Positions 13,573-22,742 of a stretch of 64,000 nt of DNA are shown in pieces (the stretch's first letter is position 1; each line of letters opens with the position of its first letter). Below the pieces are notes generated by a model that did no database searches, was not told the origin of the DNA, and saw only the letters and a program-made list of their open reading frames with translations. This stretch comes from a bacterium (GTDB lineage: Bacteria > Bacteroidota > Ignavibacteria > UBA10030), in NCBI GenBank assembly GCA_043803945.1, contig JAZDJN010000104.1, forward strand, positions 70,647 to 134,646. Reading direction: 5' to 3'. Both the position numbers and the translations under genes were made by a program.

Positions 13573-13914
13573 ATGCCGGAATATCGGATTAAGGTTGCGC
13601 CCGTTACAGTAGCGTATGCTGACGGGGAGAAAAACAAGCTTGTAGTGGAGTTCGCCATCCCAGGAGCGCCAACAGATACCATCGATCTGAAGCTCCTGCC
13701 AGATAGCGTCCACCTGACAGCACCAGCAAGGGACATCGAGTATGTTTCAGCACTGGCTTTAGCTTGGCCGGTGAAACCTGACAAAGCCGAAGCGATCTAC
13801 GAAAACGGCCTGCTCCGAATTGAGGTGCCCTTCAAAGATCCGATGGAAGATGCTGTGAAGATCGCTATCAAAGCAGGTGGCGTGGAAATCAAGACCAAAG
13901 CAATCGAAGGCTGA
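13573..13914 (+). CDS. Hsp20/alpha-crystallin family small heat-shock protein
   Basis: VEFAIPG...AEAIYENGLLRIEVP; AAGGAGG RBS. Confidence 0.88.
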   Translation: MPEYRIKVAPVTVAYADGEKNKLVVEFAIPGAPTDTIDLKLLPDSVHLTAPARDIEYVSALALAWPVKPDKAEAIYENGLLRIEVPFKDPMEDAVKIAIKAGGVEIKTKAIEG

Positions 13915-14290
13915 TGACCCGTCAGTGGCTCCCCGCTATAAAGCAGCGGGGTAGGAAAGCTGATCCCGACAAGATCCGTCCCGATATGAGGCATCAGGAC
14001 AAGTCGGGGCAGGTCGAATGAGCACCCCGTAAAATGCACGGGGTAAATGCGTACGTTAAGCATGGCTGGCATAGGTGCAATGCAGGTTTGTAAGCCAGAG
14101 GTCGTTAGACTCCGATAGAGTCTAACGGACTCTATCGAGCTTATGAGCCATTGGCGAGACAAAGCTCGACTTCGTCGGCTTGGTTCGGATAGTACAATTT
14201 GTGAGCCAGAGGCGCAGGCGCAAAAGTTATCAGTGCGGCAGTCCCGAATAAAAACATTTCGGGATAAACTTTAGCCGCCATCCGTTATAC
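13915..14290 (+). repeat. attC site expanded by several inserted hairpins
   Basis: AAGCTGA..C L''-like box, GCAG..CTTTAGCC L'-like box and R' GTTATAC (14284-14290), interrupted by palindromes. Confidence 0.65.
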
Positions 14291-15677: not shown

Positions 15678-15837
15678 GTATAACCAGTCGCTGCTGCTGC
15701 TGACGGAATGAGCGTCGGTGCAATTTACATGGCGAGTAGAGGTTGAGTAGTTAAAGATAAAGTAGGTACAATGAACTTAGTTCGTTGGGTGCATGTTGCA
15801 AATATGCAGTGCCGCAGCTTAGCGCCCGTCGTTAGCC
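15678..15837 (+). repeat. attC site
   Basis: R'' GTATAAC, L'' GCTGCTGACGG, L' CCGCAGCTTAGC, R' GTTAGCC; the R'' region is a 15-bp perfect inverse of the upstream R' (14284-14298). Confidence 0.88.
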
Positions 15838-15851
15838 ATTGGAGGTGAGTA

Positions 15852-16895
15852 ATGCTTTTTGAGTGGAAAGACGCAGGGAAAGATACATCAGATGTCGAGA
15901 AGTTGAAAGAGGTGCGACTCGCTGATTCTGGTCTTCGAGAACGAGACCTCGAGAATCTCATCTCGAAGCGGATAGAGCAACTTGTTCGAACCGATCAACT
16001 CATGGTGATCATGCAGGAACGCTCTAGGCAAGAGGAGCCGGATATCCTTGCGTTAGACGAATCCGGTACCCTGTTCATCTTTGAGTTGAAACGGTGGGAA
16101 GGCAGGGGCGAAAATGTACTGCAGGTACTTCGCTATGGGCAAAAGTTTGGTCGATATGAATATGATCGGCTGAATTATTTCTATCAGTCGTATAGTAGAC
16201 ATCGCCAGCAGGAGGTGACTCTGAAGGAGGCTCATAGAGAGTACTTCGGGCTCTCAGCATCCCTCGAAGAGAACCTCTTTAATATATCTCAGCAGTTCGT
16301 GGTTGTTACAAATGGCCTTGACTATGATACCTGGGATGCGATTGCTTTTTGGAAAGCCAAGGGACTCAATATCTTTCCTCTGATCTACAGATTATTTCGT
16401 CTTTCGGATAAACTTCACATTGATTTCGATCCTTACGGGCCAGTGCCTGATGCACCAAAGGACTCAGAAAGTGGTCTTTATGTTGTAAATACGAACCTTA
16501 CATATGATCCAGATGCTTACCAAGAGATGGTTACCGAGAGGAAAGGTGCGGCCTACTACGACCGGAAATACGCAATTCAGAATATCAAGGCTGGCAACAG
16601 TGTTTGTCTATATCACGTCGGGGTTGGCGTTATTGGCATCGGCAAGGCAAAGACAGATTACCAAAAAAAGGATATCGGTTCAGATTTAGCAGCAGAGTAC
16701 TATGTCCCAATCGAATTCCAATACCTTGTCAATATCAACAGCGAGAATTGGACCAGCTTAGCAGTGCATGCTTGGGAGATAAACGCGAAATTTGGTACAA
16801 GTTATCGGTTTCGGCAGACTGTATTTCAACTACCTTACGAGTTTGCTGAATTCATTAAAGATAAATTCAAGGAGAAAGGTGTGAAGAATGGCTAA
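15852..16895 (+). CDS. NucS/EndoMS-like PD-(D/E)xK endonuclease with C-terminal EVE/PUA-like domain
   Basis: PDILALDESGTLFIFELKR...QVLRY; C-terminal IKAGNSVCLYHVGVGVIGIG; stop lies in the R'' box. Confidence 0.75.
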   Translation: MLFEWKDAGKDTSDVEKLKEVRLADSGLRERDLENLISKRIEQLVRTDQLMVIMQERSRQEEPDILALDESGTLFIFELKRWEGRGENVLQVLRYGQKFGRYEYDRLNYFYQSYSRHRQQEVTLKEAHREYFGLSASLEENLFNISQQFVVVTNGLDYDTWDAIAFWKAKGLNIFPLIYRLFRLSDKLHIDFDPYGPVPDAPKDSESGLYVVNTNLTYDPDAYQEMVTERKGAAYYDRKYAIQNIKAGNSVCLYHVGVGVIGIGKAKTDYQKKDIGSDLAAEYYVPIEFQYLVNINSENWTSLAVHAWEINAKFGTSYRFRQTVFQLPYEFAEFIKDKFKEKGVKNG

Positions 16896-16993
16896 CCCGC
16901 GCATGCACCACGACACACCTTCGCGAAAAAGATTGATCACGTTAAAGAGATATACAGCGCTCCGGTGTGCGGGTGATGCGCAGCCCGTTAGGC
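16890..16993 (+). repeat. attC site
   Basis: GGCTAAC-CCGCGCATGCACCACGAC...GCGGGTGATGCG-CAGCCC-GTTAGGC; AATGGCTAAC is the exact inverse of GTTAGCCATT at 15831. Confidence 0.92.
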
Positions 16994-17012
16994 GCGCCTA
17001 AATATAAAAAAT

Positions 17013-18242
17013 ATGAACAATATTGAAATTGAAAATAAACTTATTGAGGTGCTTGATCCAAACGGCAAGGCTTACAAGGATGCCTCGGTAAATTTATCAA
17101 AAATACCACCTCAATATCATGAAAATATTCTTAATGCTTTGCTGGCAGATTCTCTTTCAAAAGAATTAATATCTCAACCTGAATTTGCAAAAGGTCATGG
17201 TTATTCAATCTGGCTTGGAGATTCAGGAACTGGACTCACACCTGTTATGGCAGCTCAAGTGCTTATTCGTCGTACAAGCAGAACAAGTGACCCAAAAGAA
17301 GCCGTTGATTGGCTCAATCGTGTTCTTGCCACAAAGGAGGCTGATGGAAAAATCATTCTTGCTCTTTGGGGGATTCTCGTAGAACAACCAATTCATTTCA
17401 ATGAAGAATTATCCCTCATTGCTTTCTCGGATGTTACACCGTCACACAATAAAAAAGTAATTCTGGACTCGGCAAGCACTTATCCCATCGGTGTGTTTCA
17501 ACCCTTTCCCTTCAGATCTCCATCGGCGGCACTTACTGCTAAAATTCATGTAAATCCATTTATTCAACCATCTGAACTCGCTGGCTTGCCTCCTCAAGGA
17601 CCGTTGCCCCAACATGAAATGCTTGAGTTAGCCCGACTTTCTCTTAATTGTGTGGGTACAGCTACTGCAATCGCAGCAGCCTCTTGGTTTCAATTTGATG
17701 ATCCAGATATCCAAGATGCTGTTCTCTTTAGTGGTATCTCTACTCGTATTGGATTAAAACACGACATTCTATTTATTAAAGACTCAAATATTGAGATTGA
17801 AGAGGCACAAAAAGTTGTTCGTTCAGTTCTCCGTCTCTCTGGTGATGTTGCCAAGCGTACGAAAATATCTCTTCAAAGATTTGATAGAGCCTGCAGACAT
17901 TTTGATCTTAATGATAAGGCTCTTGATCTTGCAATTGCACTAGAATCTTTACTCACTGAGGACGCTGGAGAAAATAATTTTAAGGTGGGTTTGCGGGCTG
18001 CACTACTATCGGCTGATAATCCAAAGGAACAAATCCGTGCTCGTTATTTAGTTAATGGTCTTTATAAGATTCGTAACAAGGTTGTGCACCGCGGATATGC
18101 TCTAAAAGAAGTTACTATCAAGGAGAAGAAGATTCCGACTTCAGAAGTCATCAATGAATCTGTAAAAATTGTCGCTCAAGTAATTAAAACTATCGCTGAG
18201 AAGGGAATTATTCCTGATTGGCATGAATACGAATTGGAATAG
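17013..18242 (+). CDS. ApeA-like HEPN domain protein
   Basis: C-terminal DKALDLAIALESLL...LYKIRNKVVH (RxxxxH); starts 20 nt after attC R'. Confidence 0.8.
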   Translation: MNNIEIENKLIEVLDPNGKAYKDASVNLSKIPPQYHENILNALLADSLSKELISQPEFAKGHGYSIWLGDSGTGLTPVMAAQVLIRRTSRTSDPKEAVDWLNRVLATKEADGKIILALWGILVEQPIHFNEELSLIAFSDVTPSHNKKVILDSASTYPIGVFQPFPFRSPSAALTAKIHVNPFIQPSELAGLPPQGPLPQHEMLELARLSLNCVGTATAIAAASWFQFDDPDIQDAVLFSGISTRIGLKHDILFIKDSNIEIEEAQKVVRSVLRLSGDVAKRTKISLQRFDRACRHFDLNDKALDLAIALESLLTEDAGENNFKVGLRAALLSADNPKEQIRARYLVNGLYKIRNKVVHRGYALKEVTIKEKKIPTSEVINESVKIVAQVIKTIAEKGIIPDWHEYELE

Positions 18243-18255
18243 TTCTTAAGCCCGC

Positions 18256-18512
18256 CTTCCAAGTAACTCACTGACTTGATACGGGAACGAGTTGATAGCC
18301 AAGCGATTCAGCTCTGTGTTTAAGATTATGAATGATGCGGGATTTGAATTTTTCCTCATAGTAATCGGCGCCGAGATCGACGTACTCGACTTTGAATTTC
18401 AGCATTTTGTAGACAATCCGTGCCAACTTGTGGATTGTAGCGGTGATAGCCTCCGGTCCACCGTGTTTTTCTCTTACTCTTCAGAAAGCACCAAGGGCAC
18501 AATGAGCATTGG
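18256..18512 (-). mobile_element. IS110-family remnant (transposase C-terminus plus right end)
   Basis: Manual translation: ALGAF*RVREKHGGPEAITATIHKLARIVYKMLKFKVEYVDLGADYYEEKFKSRIIHNLKHRAESLGYQLVPVSSQ*; then GTTACTTGGAAG end. Confidence 0.88.
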
Positions 18513-18647
18513 CGAAGGCGGACAAGCCCGCCTACGTTACAAAGCAAACTCCGGCGGGTAGGCGTGCCTCGTTAAGCATGATTTGCAGAGGTGCAGCGGC
18601 ATTCGGTATGTTAACGAGTAATAACGATCCAAGAAAAGGTCAAACTC

Positions 18648-19997
18648 ATGACAAAACGGCAATGGTTCATTCGCGGATCTGTGTTTCTCTTCTTCCTGCT
18701 GCTGGCCATCAATTTGTATGTCTTCTTTACCCGCGAATGGGAATCTTCTTTCACCCCAACATCGTATGCAACGCTCTACTACCCGCTCGATATCCCGACT
18801 ATCCGTGAATGGAAGCTTGTGGAGCGCAATCGAATTCAACTGGACCTTGCCTGCACGAATGAAATAGCCGAATGGAAAATCCTCACAGACGGCGAGAACG
18901 AACAAACCGCCACCGGAATGAAACCGTCGTTTCGCATCGACACAACATTCAGTAAGCTCCACACCTACAAGCTTATTCCAGTCGCCAATCAGGCAATTCA
19001 GCCGATCGAAATCTCCATCCGCTTCTACGGCGAAGAGTTCTATGCATCCCTCGGGATGAAGCACGCCGATGTCTATGTGGTACGCGCAAATGTACCGTGC
19101 GGTGAGTTCGAACAGTATTCTGTCGACGACTGGGTGGATGATTACCGGTATGTCGGTGAAGCGGCTCTGGCTGAAGTGAGCCGCATCTTGTATGATGAAG
19201 TGGGAATACGCGACACAGATGCGACGTTCACGCGAATGGAGAAACTCTTTCCCTACCTGCGCAAAAAACTCAAAGGCTCGGGTGGCGTACCGAAGGACGA
19301 GGAACGATGGATGGATCCCTATCAACTGTACACCGAAATGGCTGCCGGCACCGGAAAAGGATGGTGTACGCAAAACGCCCAGGTGTGGGTATTCTGGGCA
19401 AACAGGGCAGGAATCCCTACGAGATTTGTTTTTGGCGCACGAACTCAAGACGACAGGATCGTGTATACGGGGCATGCCTGGGCAGAATCATACATACGTG
19501 AACAATATCGGTGGGCATTTGTCGACCTGTCGCAAGCCGAACTCTACATCACCAACAGAACAGGGCAGGTTCTCAACACGGCAGAGCTGTTTCATTTGAA
19601 CCAGCAGAACGCGTTTGACAGTACGTTTGCCAGAATCTACTCAGACTGGATCTGGGAAAACCATTCCGGCTTTCCGGGAAAAGACACACTGGTGACGGTC
19701 CCCTTTGCACTGTGTAACCAATTAGTACGGAGCGAATTCACACCTCAGGCGATTCTTAAGTATCGACGGCCGCCGAACATTGAAGACGTTCGGGAGATCT
19801 ATACGGGATTTATAAGCGACAGAACTTTTCTTCTGGGAAACATCGAGCGGTACCTTTTCAAACCTCAGTTAGCCTATTCCCTTTATCCGACGGAAGGTGG
19901 ACACACATACTTTATCCGTCGTTTCCTGTTCTTCGCTTTGCTCACAAGTTTTGTATTCTGGATGACGCTACTTGCGGTCGGTAGGGTCTGGAACTGA
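18648..19997 (+). CDS. transglutaminase-like domain membrane protein
   Basis: GWCTQNA (Cys), GHAWAE (His), WAFVD (Asp); N- and C-terminal TM segments. Confidence 0.82.
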   Translation: MTKRQWFIRGSVFLFFLLLAINLYVFFTREWESSFTPTSYATLYYPLDIPTIREWKLVERNRIQLDLACTNEIAEWKILTDGENEQTATGMKPSFRIDTTFSKLHTYKLIPVANQAIQPIEISIRFYGEEFYASLGMKHADVYVVRANVPCGEFEQYSVDDWVDDYRYVGEAALAEVSRILYDEVGIRDTDATFTRMEKLFPYLRKKLKGSGGVPKDEERWMDPYQLYTEMAAGTGKGWCTQNAQVWVFWANRAGIPTRFVFGARTQDDRIVYTGHAWAESYIREQYRWAFVDLSQAELYITNRTGQVLNTAELFHLNQQNAFDSTFARIYSDWIWENHSGFPGKDTLVTVPFALCNQLVRSEFTPQAILKYRRPPNIEDVREIYTGFISDRTFLLGNIERYLFKPQLAYSLYPTEGGHTYFIRRFLFFALLTSFVFWMTLLAVGRVWN

Positions 19998-20600: not shown

Positions 20601-22742
20601 CTATTTTACTCCCATCTCCTTGAGCAGGAACCCGGCCTTGCCGAATTTTTCTGTGACGAAGAGAACATAGCGAATATCGACAGAGATCGTTCTCTGAAGA
20701 TCATAATCGAATTGCCAATCGCCGATCATTGCTTCATAGTTGCCGTCGAATGCCACACCAACAATTTCACCTTTTGCATTCATCACCGGACTTCCGCTGT
20801 TCCCTCCGGTTATATCGCACTGATGCGTGAACGCAACGGGCACACTCTTTAATGCGGGATCGGCATATGTTCCATAATCCTTCTTCTCATATAACTCAAC
20901 CAATCCCTGCGGTGCGTCGAAAGGCTCGACACCGGTATTCTTCTCCACTACTCCCTTCAAGGTTGTAAAAGGGGAATACCATACTGCATCGGCGGGTTTA
21001 TACCCTTTCACCTTCCCCCAGGTAAATCGCATGGTGCCATTTGCATCGGGGTAGAGATTCGATCCCTTCCATTCGTAGAGGGCATCCATATAGATTTTTC
21101 TTACAGCAGTAACCTTGATGTTAAATTGCTGGGTCGCCTGCTGGATTTCCGTGAAGACCGGATCGAGCGAAGCTGTGAGTTCGATGAATGGATCGCGAAG
21201 ATCGCGCAATTCCTTTGTCGTCTTTTTCAGCAGCCCTTTCACGTATTCCATATTCGCCAGCCTGGATGATTTGAATGCCTCGTCGACAAATTGTTCGAGC
21301 GTTCTCGACTTTTCACTGAAGATCGTTTCCAGAGGAACGATCCGTTGATCACCTTTCAGATCGTTTGCCAGCTTGAGAGCACGGAGGAATAATGCTTTTT
21401 CAACAGGTTCGAAATAATCATTCACGGTAAATTGCAGCCCATCCATGGTCTGTTGAATTGTCTGTTCATAATTTTGATCTCTCTCCTGTTCAGGCTTGTC
21501 CATCTCCTTGGCCAGTGCATACATGTTCCCTGCGATATTCAGCGGCGCGCCGGCAAGTCCCTGGAATAGCCCAATGATGTTATCCCGCTCACGGGTCTTT
21601 GCGATGATGTCGTAGATTGCCTTTTCATCAGTTATTACGCTTCCATATCGTTGTTGGCGCTGAGGATTGGCATTGACCCATGCCATCAGCTCCTTTTCAA
21701 AGTCGAGCTTCTTCTGGACAAAGTTGAGCTTCTTCATTCCGTCGACTTTCCCCTGGTAATTTTTCATCGTGTTTGCCAGACCGCGCGCGAGGTTCGCAAC
21801 CTTCAATTCGCCGTCACGGTTGTTCTTTGTAAGCTTATCAAGAATGTCGAGGATCTCTTTAAAATTGTTAATCGAAAAAGGGTAGTTGTACTGATAATTC
21901 CAGTTGGCTGAGTTCGATGTCCGATACCGCGTTGTCTGCCCCGGGAAACCAATGATAAACGTGAAGTCCCCCTCCTTCAGGTTGCCCTTTGCCGGTTTCA
22001 GCCAGACTGCAGGTTTGTAGGGAACATTATTCGGGCTGTACTCTTTTCCCTTCCCTTCGGGTGAAACATAAACACGCATGAAAGAAAAATCGCCAGTGTG
22101 ACGCGGCCACATCCAGTTATCCACTTCCCCGCCATAATTTCCGATAGATTGGGGAGGCGCATAGACAATCCGGATGTCTTTGAATACACGGTAGACATAC
22201 AGCATGTATTGTTTGCCGTTAAACATTTCAGAAATGATTGCCCGGATATCCTCCTGATCTTTTTTGACAGCCTTTGTCATTTCGGTAATTTTTGCCGTCA
22301 CTTTGGTGTTCCGTTCAACGGGATCGGTGATATCTTTGACAGCATCAAGAATTTCCCTGGTAACATCTTTCAATTGTGTAACCATGAATGCCTGGTATCC
22401 GGGAGCCCGGATCTCTTCAGCGCTGCTCTTCGCCAGGAATCCATTTTTTAGATAATCGCTCTGGATGTTCGATGTGCGTTGAATGGCACCATACGCGACA
22501 TGATGATTCGTGATCAATAATCCCTCAGGCGAAACGAACGAAGCGGTTCCGCCTCCAAGCTGAACCACTGCACTGTACAATGCAGGTTTATCAGGTCGAT
22601 AAATCTCCTTCACACCGATTTGAAGTCCTTGCTTCTTCAAATCCAGCTTCTCAATTTGATTGAGCAGCCACATTCCCTCTTGTGCGGAGGCAGTGAGAAT
22701 GAACATGAACGAAATGAATAAATAGAACATAAATTTTTTCAT
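20601..22742 (-). CDS. S46 family dipeptidyl peptidase
   Basis: EGMWL, ASFVSPEGLLITNHH, DNWMWPRHTGDFS, YPDANGTMR, DITGGNSGSPV, FDGNYE; start MKKF with signal peptide. Confidence 0.96.
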   Translation of the reverse strand: MKKFMFYLFISFMFILTASAQEGMWLLNQIEKLDLKKQGLQIGVKEIYRPDKPALYSAVVQLGGGTASFVSPEGLLITNHHVAYGAIQRTSNIQSDYLKNGFLAKSSAEEIRAPGYQAFMVTQLKDVTREILDAVKDITDPVERNTKVTAKITEMTKAVKKDQEDIRAIISEMFNGKQYMLYVYRVFKDIRIVYAPPQSIGNYGGEVDNWMWPRHTGDFSFMRVYVSPEGKGKEYSPNNVPYKPAVWLKPAKGNLKEGDFTFIIGFPGQTTRYRTSNSANWNYQYNYPFSINNFKEILDILDKLTKNNRDGELKVANLARGLANTMKNYQGKVDGMKKLNFVQKKLDFEKELMAWVNANPQRQQRYGSVITDEKAIYDIIAKTRERDNIIGLFQGLAGAPLNIAGNMYALAKEMDKPEQERDQNYEQTIQQTMDGLQFTVNDYFEPVEKALFLRALKLANDLKGDQRIVPLETIFSEKSRTLEQFVDEAFKSSRLANMEYVKGLLKKTTKELRDLRDPFIELTASLDPVFTEIQQATQQFNIKVTAVRKIYMDALYEWKGSNLYPDANGTMRFTWGKVKGYKPADAVWYSPFTTLKGVVEKNTGVEPFDAPQGLVELYEKKDYGTYADPALKSVPVAFTHQCDITGGNSGSPVMNAKGEIVGVAFDGNYEAMIGDWQFDYDLQRTISVDIRYVLFVTEKFGKAGFLLKEMGVK

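Follow-up and report, generated by a model that had tools for sequence, protein, structure and literature searches.

A probable remnant of an IS110-group insertion sequence at the R'' box of an integron attC site, and relatives that suggest RNA-guided targeting of this box

Among insertion sequences (ISs), entry into integron attC sites has been described for the IS1111 group. ISKpn4, ISPst6 and ISPa25 insert at one end of attC, in a fixed position and orientation. The RNA of these IS1111-attC elements matches both target strands and its region lies downstream of the gene, whose product in the IS1111 group has 330-350 amino acids (aa); the elements carry subterminal inverted repeats of 7-17 bp (PMC11187229). 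In IS621, left guides have top-strand sense and include the core (PMC11208160). We analysed a stretch of 64,000 nucleotides (nt), hereafter the window (G000:C104:70647-134646, where G000 is the 5.54-Mb genome and C-numbers denote contigs), in which a decayed IS interrupts an attC site in a cassette array. A first-pass annotation of the same letters had named the known attC-targeting ISs as IS1111-type, in agreement with PMC11187229, and had suggested that a separate RNA-guided IS110 lineage may target the R'' box, an idea now favoured by rebuilt R'' boxes and by the putative guide GGUUAGG(C/U) in eight of nine elements. Our reading, which we hold with a probability of about 0.8, is that an IS110-group IS of the bridge-RNA type inserted at the CT of an R'' box and was later deleted to a remnant. 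The interrupted site comprises the following features.

16988-17001, plus strand: first bases of the 17013-18242 cassette, which form an inverted repeat with the R'' arm at 18246-18257
17013-18242, plus strand: cassette open reading frame (ORF) of 409 aa, the last of the run; TAG at 18240-18242
18246-18257, plus strand: R'' arm (left half) of the attC belonging to the 17013-18242 cassette; ends in the core CT (18256-18257)
18258-18267, minus strand: IS right end (donor-left arm), GTTACTTGGA on the IS strand, identical in four G000 copies
18268-18513, minus strand: transposase remnant, about the last 80 codons; stop at 18268-18270, in-frame TGA at 18481-18483
18514-18521, no strand assigned: breakpoint zone, either IS-internal or attC interior; the ALRMAAF motif of close relatives is unreadable here without gaps
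18522-18568, plus strand: hairpin module H, an attC-interior module of 47 nt; its 5' arm repeats AAGCCCGCCT, arms GCCTAC/GTAGGC
18570-18595, plus strand: attC-interior stretch, equal to 14054-14079 at 22 of 26 positions

The remnant is the right end plus the tail of an IS110-family transposase, as the first-pass annotation had proposed. Over 80 aa, this tail shares 87% identity with an intact C-terminus from contig C52; the identity is 72% with a transposase of 456 aa that carries PF01548 and PF02371 and comes from G052, a related genome of the same order as G000. By itself the remnant gives no Pfam hit; only the tail that follows PF02371 is present, and it carries a 3-nt deletion besides the in-frame TGA. 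The distance from stop to flank is 10 nt plus CT; the first-pass annotation gave approximately 12 nt. Blastn homology to intact relatives stops at 18513-18515. The IS-derived part ends at about 18513-18521 and not at 18570, as had been thought, while the reported likeness of 18570-18595 to an attC at 13.9 kb holds; it is the sole match of at least 18 of 26 positions in the window on either strand, self excepted. Stretches related to 18570-18595 come after the 5' arm in the attC sites of three relatives (L039, L040 and L052; L-numbers denote loci of relatives in genomes or metagenomes). A 196-nt contig from another public run covers 18446-18641 with 11 differences and spans the join between remnant and H, so this join is no assembly artefact of G000. 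The only public run with part of the stretch holds a share of 0.11, and its contigs are relatives at 82-94% identity; the parts that they leave uncovered are uninformative.

On the cassette side, the 409-aa ORF is followed after its stop by TTCTTAAGCCCGCCT, which runs up to 18257 and gives way to TCCAAGTAAC at 18258-18267. For each junction we took the 12 nt beside the IS, added an assumed AAC and sought the reverse complement upstream, where the cassette start is expected to lie. In the window this composite equals the reverse complement of 16987-17001 at 13 of 15 positions, 1271 nt upstream (GTTAGGCGCGC is located at 16987-16997), and only six sites on both strands of the 5.54-Mb genome match the R'' arm this well. 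The earlier claim that the upstream R' predicts the R'' is thus confirmed.

Relatives of the remnant came from three sources. The 80-aa tail was matched in 10 of 61 related genomes, with seven matches in G052. A metagenome scan gave 15 loci, nine of them with 75-87% tail identity. When the single-sequence tail was searched against genome contigs, it returned 255 stretches, none of which was a relative; an alignment-based genome scan was then used, and from its 491 relatives we retained the best 80. The junction set comprises 21 right junctions (four in G000 and 17 in relatives) and 14 left junctions, which correspond to full insertions. The insertion had at first been counted as a single event; the three further G000 copies and the 17 junctions elsewhere have the same join.

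Intact relatives are laid out as in the IS110 group: the left end is long and the right end short. A 1.65-kb element is delimited by six G052 copies that are nearly identical, and intact relatives overall measure 1.65-1.70 kb, with transposases of 456-464 aa. In all eight intact relatives, 258-297 nt separate the left end from the ATG and 12-15 nt the stop from the right end. The proteins of L039 and of L017, a G052 copy, score above the cut-off for PF01548 (N-terminal DEDD domain) and PF02371 (C-terminal domain). Right ends read GAGTTACTTGGAAG in nine metagenome copies and GAGTTTCTTGGAAG in G052 and L057. Relative to the cassettes, the transposase gene has an antisense orientation at every site.

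On the IS strand, 14/14 left and 21/21 right junctions carry the dinucleotide AG, which reads CT on the cassette strand. Left junctions read …[G/T]GTT-AG-GC… in 13 of 14 cases (L044 has AGGT), and right junctions …CTTGGA-AG-… in all 21. We take AG as a shared core because the dinucleotides then agree at every junction; with the boundaries drawn as GGTTAGG…GGAAG and a 2-nt core outside, they disagree between junctions in nearly all copies, and that placement was rejected. The switch into the IS after CT was correctly placed by the first-pass annotation, except that CT is the core at both junctions rather than merely the last target bases. No target duplication extends beyond this dinucleotide, and the 10-bp repeat of the window is unmatched at any intact copy. 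When the alignments were read by eye, the 3-nt CCA…TGG was the only inverted repeat seen close to the ends. Two further observations concern multiple ends. In L054 (G052:C1:292423-296567), the last 415 bp of an intact copy are repeated immediately after it, which looks like a copy-into-copy insertion at an internal target-like word, followed by homologous deletion. Additional right ends lie 12 nt before the L038 left end (L038 1-130) and 19 nt after the L036 copy (L036 2064-2094); in these cases one attC was hit repeatedly, a second GC-CT word of its L'' arm serving as the site.

The targets of intact relatives include bona fide attC sites, hit at the R'' box. Joined flanks read, in cassette orientation, …(A/T)GC(C/T)GC CT AAC CAG…, that is, an R'' box and then an L''-like arm, and the 7-mer over the rebuilt join fits RYYYAAC in 10 of the 14 full insertions. 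The left end opens with GC in seven of nine elements, so that in these seven a full GCCTAAC is rebuilt at the left junction. In the fold of the L040 site, GCCTAACC is paired to a GTTAGGC that lies 196 nt downstream, and the 5' arm has two bulges of one base each, C and A. Extrahelical bases of canonical identity and spacing characterise the '' arm of attC. The attC sites of L052 and L056 measure 196 and 279 nt, respectively; both end in GTTAGGC, with an ORF start right after. The boxes themselves read GCCTAAC in L040, ACCTAAC in L052 and AGCTAAC in L056. A cassette-start partner was found at 8 of 21 junctions, with 0, 0, 0, 0, 1, 2, 2 and 3 mismatches in 15; besides the window, these are as follows (matches, then distance).

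C52: 15 of 15, the sole site in G000, 641 nt upstream
C41: 14 of 15, 374 nt upstream
L052: 15 of 15, 936 nt upstream
L056: 15 of 15, 649 nt upstream
L039: 15 of 15, 471 nt upstream
L037: 13 of 15, 254 nt upstream
L057: 12 of 15, 596 nt upstream

Five of the junctions with no partner (L036, L038, L040, L041 and L043) have less than 300 nt of flank. About 60-130 nt after the R'' box, L039, L040 and L052 share an AT-rich stretch with a palindrome (…GTACC…GGTAC…), and the same interior holds a conserved …CAGCATGAACTTGTTTCG… block. In distant multi-copy relatives from Endozoicomonas (5 copies read), Poribacteria (9) and Desulfosarcina (3), the core is retained and the right end is similar, with other left flanks; among the groups examined, attC targeting belongs to the clade of at least 75% identity.

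Upstream of the transposase gene, the regions of nine elements align with a mean column identity of 71% and contain two near-invariant segments. Segment 1, (N)GGTTAGG(C/T), agrees in sense with the left flank together with the core and two bases, and segment 2, CTTGGAAG, with the right end together with the core. When target and RNA region are compared, their longest exact match, 7-10 nt, falls on segment 1 (left-end position 125-141) in eight of the nine elements; among 300 shuffles, 39, 3, 35, 2, 0, 19, 10 and 3 reached it, and L044 is the element that fails. Segment 2 is the longest donor match in 8/9 elements. Segment 1 varies together with the target: the left flanks of L036 and L042 end in ATGTT, and these elements carry ATGTTAGG and TGTTAGG, where the others have TGGTT. 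A Desulfosarcina element, 53% identical, has TAAAAAGCTT at the same place, which equals its own, different left junction. Since left guides in IS621 have top-strand sense and include the core, we infer that segment 1 is the left target guide, which would pair with the R'' box GCCTAACC on the cassette strand. As an antisense guide we also tried the word GCCGC, located 5' in the first loop; it would pair with the commonest right arm and changes in step in L057, but its exact matches do not exceed those of shuffles, and it was rejected. The two guide-bearing modules (columns 107-157 and 158-265 of alignment A2) are alike, each of the form …ATTGGTG(C/G)… hairpin …(G/C)CCCG-C-guide, which suggests that the target and donor loops may have arisen by duplication. 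Rfam gave no match within the window and none in an intact relative.

These comparisons lead us to propose the following history. An IS of about 1.65-1.70 kb would have inserted antisense at the CT of the R'' box (GC|CT|AAC) in the attC that closes the 17013-18242 cassette. Targeting would be RNA-guided, with (N)GGUUAGG(C/U) pairing with GCCTAACC and CUUGGAAG, a copy of right end plus core, acting as donor guide, and the element would transpose via a circle, as IS621 does. A deletion would then have removed about 1.4 kb, including the left end, the RNA region and some 370 codons. The next approximately 20 nt of attC were probably lost as well, because the order in L039 is R'' box, L'' arm, H and interior stretch. 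The right end and about 80 codons are what is left, in a decayed state.

Several results weigh against this history. In the window the AAC half of the R'' box is gone and the event is rebuilt from the left side only, and the G000 assembly contains neither a left end nor an RNA region nor an N-terminal part of this IS; the guide of the window lineage is accordingly deduced from relatives that are 75-87% identical in the tail. No antisense right-arm guides stood out above shuffles, and in the predicted consensus fold the loops carry their sense guides on the 3' side, where IS621 has them on the 5' side. Recognition of attC was by hand and folding; the fold z-score of L040, the sole site folded with a tool, is just -2.0. 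No cassette-start partner was found for 13 of 21 junctions, among them C37, L042, L044 and four G052 copies, all with sufficient flank. Three of these G052 sites (L051, L053 and L054) do not look like attC, and that genome's only above-cut-off integron integrase is on a contig without any of the six G052 copies. The check proposed in the first-pass annotation, to examine relatives for their flanks and RNA, returned R''-type targets and a matching segment, together with three G052 sites that are not attC-like. Given that four of the six G052 copies lack a partner and that three of these are not attC-like, the real specificity is for a short motif that attC sites supply.

The same G052 data are the main argument for a neighbouring explanation, in which the lineage reads a word of about 9 nt (…GC CT AACC…) and strikes attC only for carrying it: four of six copies have no cassette-start partner, the L051, L053 and L054 sites lack attC features (one is an IS copy within the IS itself) and no copy is near the G052 integron integrase. 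We nevertheless consider such incidental hits unlikely, since all four G000 right-end junctions are in cassette arrays, three with a partner and C37 with both halves, and since flank similarity continues for about 16 nt past the guide match (…CGTCAGCTTGAGCGC…) in L036, L039, L040 and three G052 sites. Moreover, the word is the R'' box consensus itself, so this explanation differs in emphasis more than in mechanism. Membership in the IS1111-attC group (the ISKpn4, ISPst6 and ISPa25 type) would account for the same kind of target, one attC end, and the same transposase superfamily (PMC11187229). It is hardly credible given the 12-15 nt after the stop, the 258-297 nt before the ATG, proteins of 456-464 rather than 330-350 aa, guide-like segments upstream of the gene and an inverted repeat that, by eye, is limited to CCA…TGG.

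A further question is posed by AAGCCCGCCT, a 10-bp direct repeat at 18248-18257 and 18524-18533 that flanks the remnant exactly. The IS might have entered the 5' arm of H (…GC CT ACG…), a degenerate R''-like site, and then undergone an internal deletion with both ends kept; the repeat would in that case arise because the first 8 nt of the kept left end equal the right target arm. Consistent with this, GAATTGGAA, which is likewise the final word of the window ORF, stands before the uninterrupted H modules of C31 and C42, and the left-end start and right target arm share their first 2-5 nt in seven of eight relatives compared (L043, L042, L039, L036, L040, L044 and, at one of six sites only, L017; L057 shares 1 nt). 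The stretch, however, has neither the invariant CCA nor the GGC of the left end, its left arm ACGT would mismatch the guide, and the left repeat copy is explained by the 13/15 complementarity to the cassette start. In L039, moreover, H lies inside attC past the L'' arm, and the near-copy of the R'' flank is its 5' arm, so the repeat could be a feature of attC. Entry into H thus seems improbable to us. Because the H 5' arm of L039 nearly copies the sequence around the R'' box, the 10-bp repeat is best explained, by analogy, as such an attC feature. Its origin as a target duplication by another transposon was rejected, as no intact copy has one; a transposase-internal origin of the right repeat was also disfavoured, since five close proteins read ALRMAAF there and the window fits only with gaps, though 18514-18529 may still be of this origin. 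For the deletion in our preferred history, insertion at the R'' box followed by loss of most of the IS, we also considered removal by the recombinase itself through half-matching sites in the window, in C37 and in the G052 tandem fragment, a process reported in the abstract of 10.64898/2026.08.31.748434; the internal sites are weakly similar to the arms.

Within G000, four other contigs hold pieces of the same IS: 261 bp on C52, cut off by the end of the contig, 139 bp at the beginning of C41, a remnant of 102 bp on C37 and an internal piece of 74 bp on C89. The four right-end junctions (window, C52, C41 and C37) all read …C-CT|TCCAAGTAAC and all lie within cassette arrays. On C37 the remnant is bracketed by both box halves (…GCAC-CT | remnant | CT-AACC…), after which the attC interior follows. 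C41 carries integron-integrase-like pieces with 131.9 and 75.5 bits to TIGR02249, under the whole-protein cut-off of 265, and an uninterrupted attC; the 5' arm of this site is identical to the consensus left flank. Blastn of G000 with eight intact relatives matched only their last ~260 bp, and two conserved RNA-region patterns found nothing above control in this genome. An intact IS110-family transposase gene at C83:2400-3800, with an open frame of 453 aa, is unrelated; it is the sole PF01548/PF02371 gene in G000 and belongs to a different element. Contigs C3, C39, C47 and C110 share their first 139 nt (ending …GTTGATCA) and then diverge; this common start probably belongs to the end of a further mobile element, present in several copies, at which the assembly broke.

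The array itself spans about 12.7-18.6 kb of the window, as a run of plus-strand ORFs with structured spacers between them, each closing in a GTTRRRY-type box. TIGR02249 (integron integrase) had no match on contig C104, and we therefore call the array integrase-less. Two of its attC sites upstream of the interrupted one are:

15678-15837, plus strand: attC of the same family, intact and taken as its reference, located two cassettes upstream; R''-like GTATAAC at 15678-15684, R' GTTAGCC at 15831-15837
16890-16993, plus strand: attC of the preceding cassette; R'' GGCTAAC at 16890-16896, R' GTTAGGC at 16987-16993, with arms that pair in the reverse-strand fold

In the 15678-15837 site, the 5' arm (…AAC CAG … CTGACGGAATGAGCG) and the 3' arm (GCCGCAGCTTAGCGCC…GTTAG) match the arms of the relatives' target attC sites. 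The 409-aa ORF has no Pfam family at E<=0.01; it is the putative HEPN gene of the first-pass annotation and contains RNKVVH, which would fit the Rx4H motif. Simple pattern-plus-fold scans for attC gave nothing or mainly false positives and were replaced by cassette-boundary logic. Counts of attC-family motifs with 3-6 mismatches were mostly noise, and only exact or 1-mismatch 16-mers were kept; G000 has six of these, on C35, C37 (three), C52 and C104. Many attC sites of the family have small nested hairpins within the L'' arm (e.g. GGCTCCCCGC…GCGGGG), and sites with such hairpins are unusually long, about 200-370 nt (window 13914-14290, C37 5146-5310, and the left flanks of L044 and L043). Copies of H occur in G000 on C42 at ~14240-14286 (95%) and C31 at ~22608-22649 (89%), and the module is also found inside the attC targeted by L039. 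The H arms, GCCCGCC(TAC)/(GTA)GGCGGGC around a loop with …GTTAAAAAGCAAACTCC…, occur in or beside attC sites of two organisms and resemble R''/R' boxes minus one base pair. Beyond the array end, the product of the gene at 18648-19997 is transglutaminase-like (PF01841, E 7.7e-11) and has a hydrophobic segment at its N-terminus; this gene seems to lie outside the cassette array.

Integron arrays are gene-shuffling platforms, and an IS in attC can freeze, split or re-package cassettes. A second lineage with the opposite layout and a predicted guide complementary to R'' would mean that RNA-guided ISs had converged on one structured site. Natural retargeting of the bridge RNA would be traceable over relatives, from GGTTAG here to TAAAAAG in the 53%-identical element, and the guide with its conserved natural target would make a ready pair for studying how longer IS110-type recombinases read RNA. 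It is possible, if doubtful at this stage, that the clade is a dedicated parasite of cassette arrays in Ignavibacteriota-like bacteria, independent of the IS1111-attC elements, with a guide that complements R''. In that case, because the left end opens with GC, the R'' box rebuilt on the far side would place the IS in the preceding cassette as cargo that the integron integrase could move, and an RNA-guided element would be riding a second recombination system. In open full text, as distinct from subscription journals, ISfinder and supplementary tables, the attC-seeking ISs described all belong to the IS1111 family, and we found no report of an IS110-group element aimed at attC, and a 2026 preprint on IS110 structures has no occurrence of integron or attC. 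The supplementary target tables of PMC11208160 and PMC11187229 may already include the clade. We rate the novelty as a new combination of known chemistry and a known type of target.

Compared with the IS1111-attC elements, the clade has in common the DEDD superfamily and insertion at an attC end, and differs in an RNA region that lies upstream, with only 12-15 nt after the stop. The traits of the IS1111 group, namely a long downstream region, a transposase of 330-350 aa and subterminal repeats, are not those of the clade, its repeats being judged by eye. The likeness to ISEc21 consists of an upstream RNA region for circle formation and targeting and of natural retargeting among relatives; ISEc21 differs in its linear site in IS3-family transposase genes and its 358-aa transposase (PMC11187229). 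The resemblance to IS621 extends to a long left end with target-like and donor-like segments that each include the core, a dinucleotide core at both junctions, a short right end and a 3-nt inverted repeat (PMC11208160). In contrast to IS621, the clade has a transposase about 130 aa longer than the stated 315-330 aa (PMC11187229), a core that reads AG on the IS strand, sense guides at the 3' side of the predicted loops and, as its target, the box of an integron attC.

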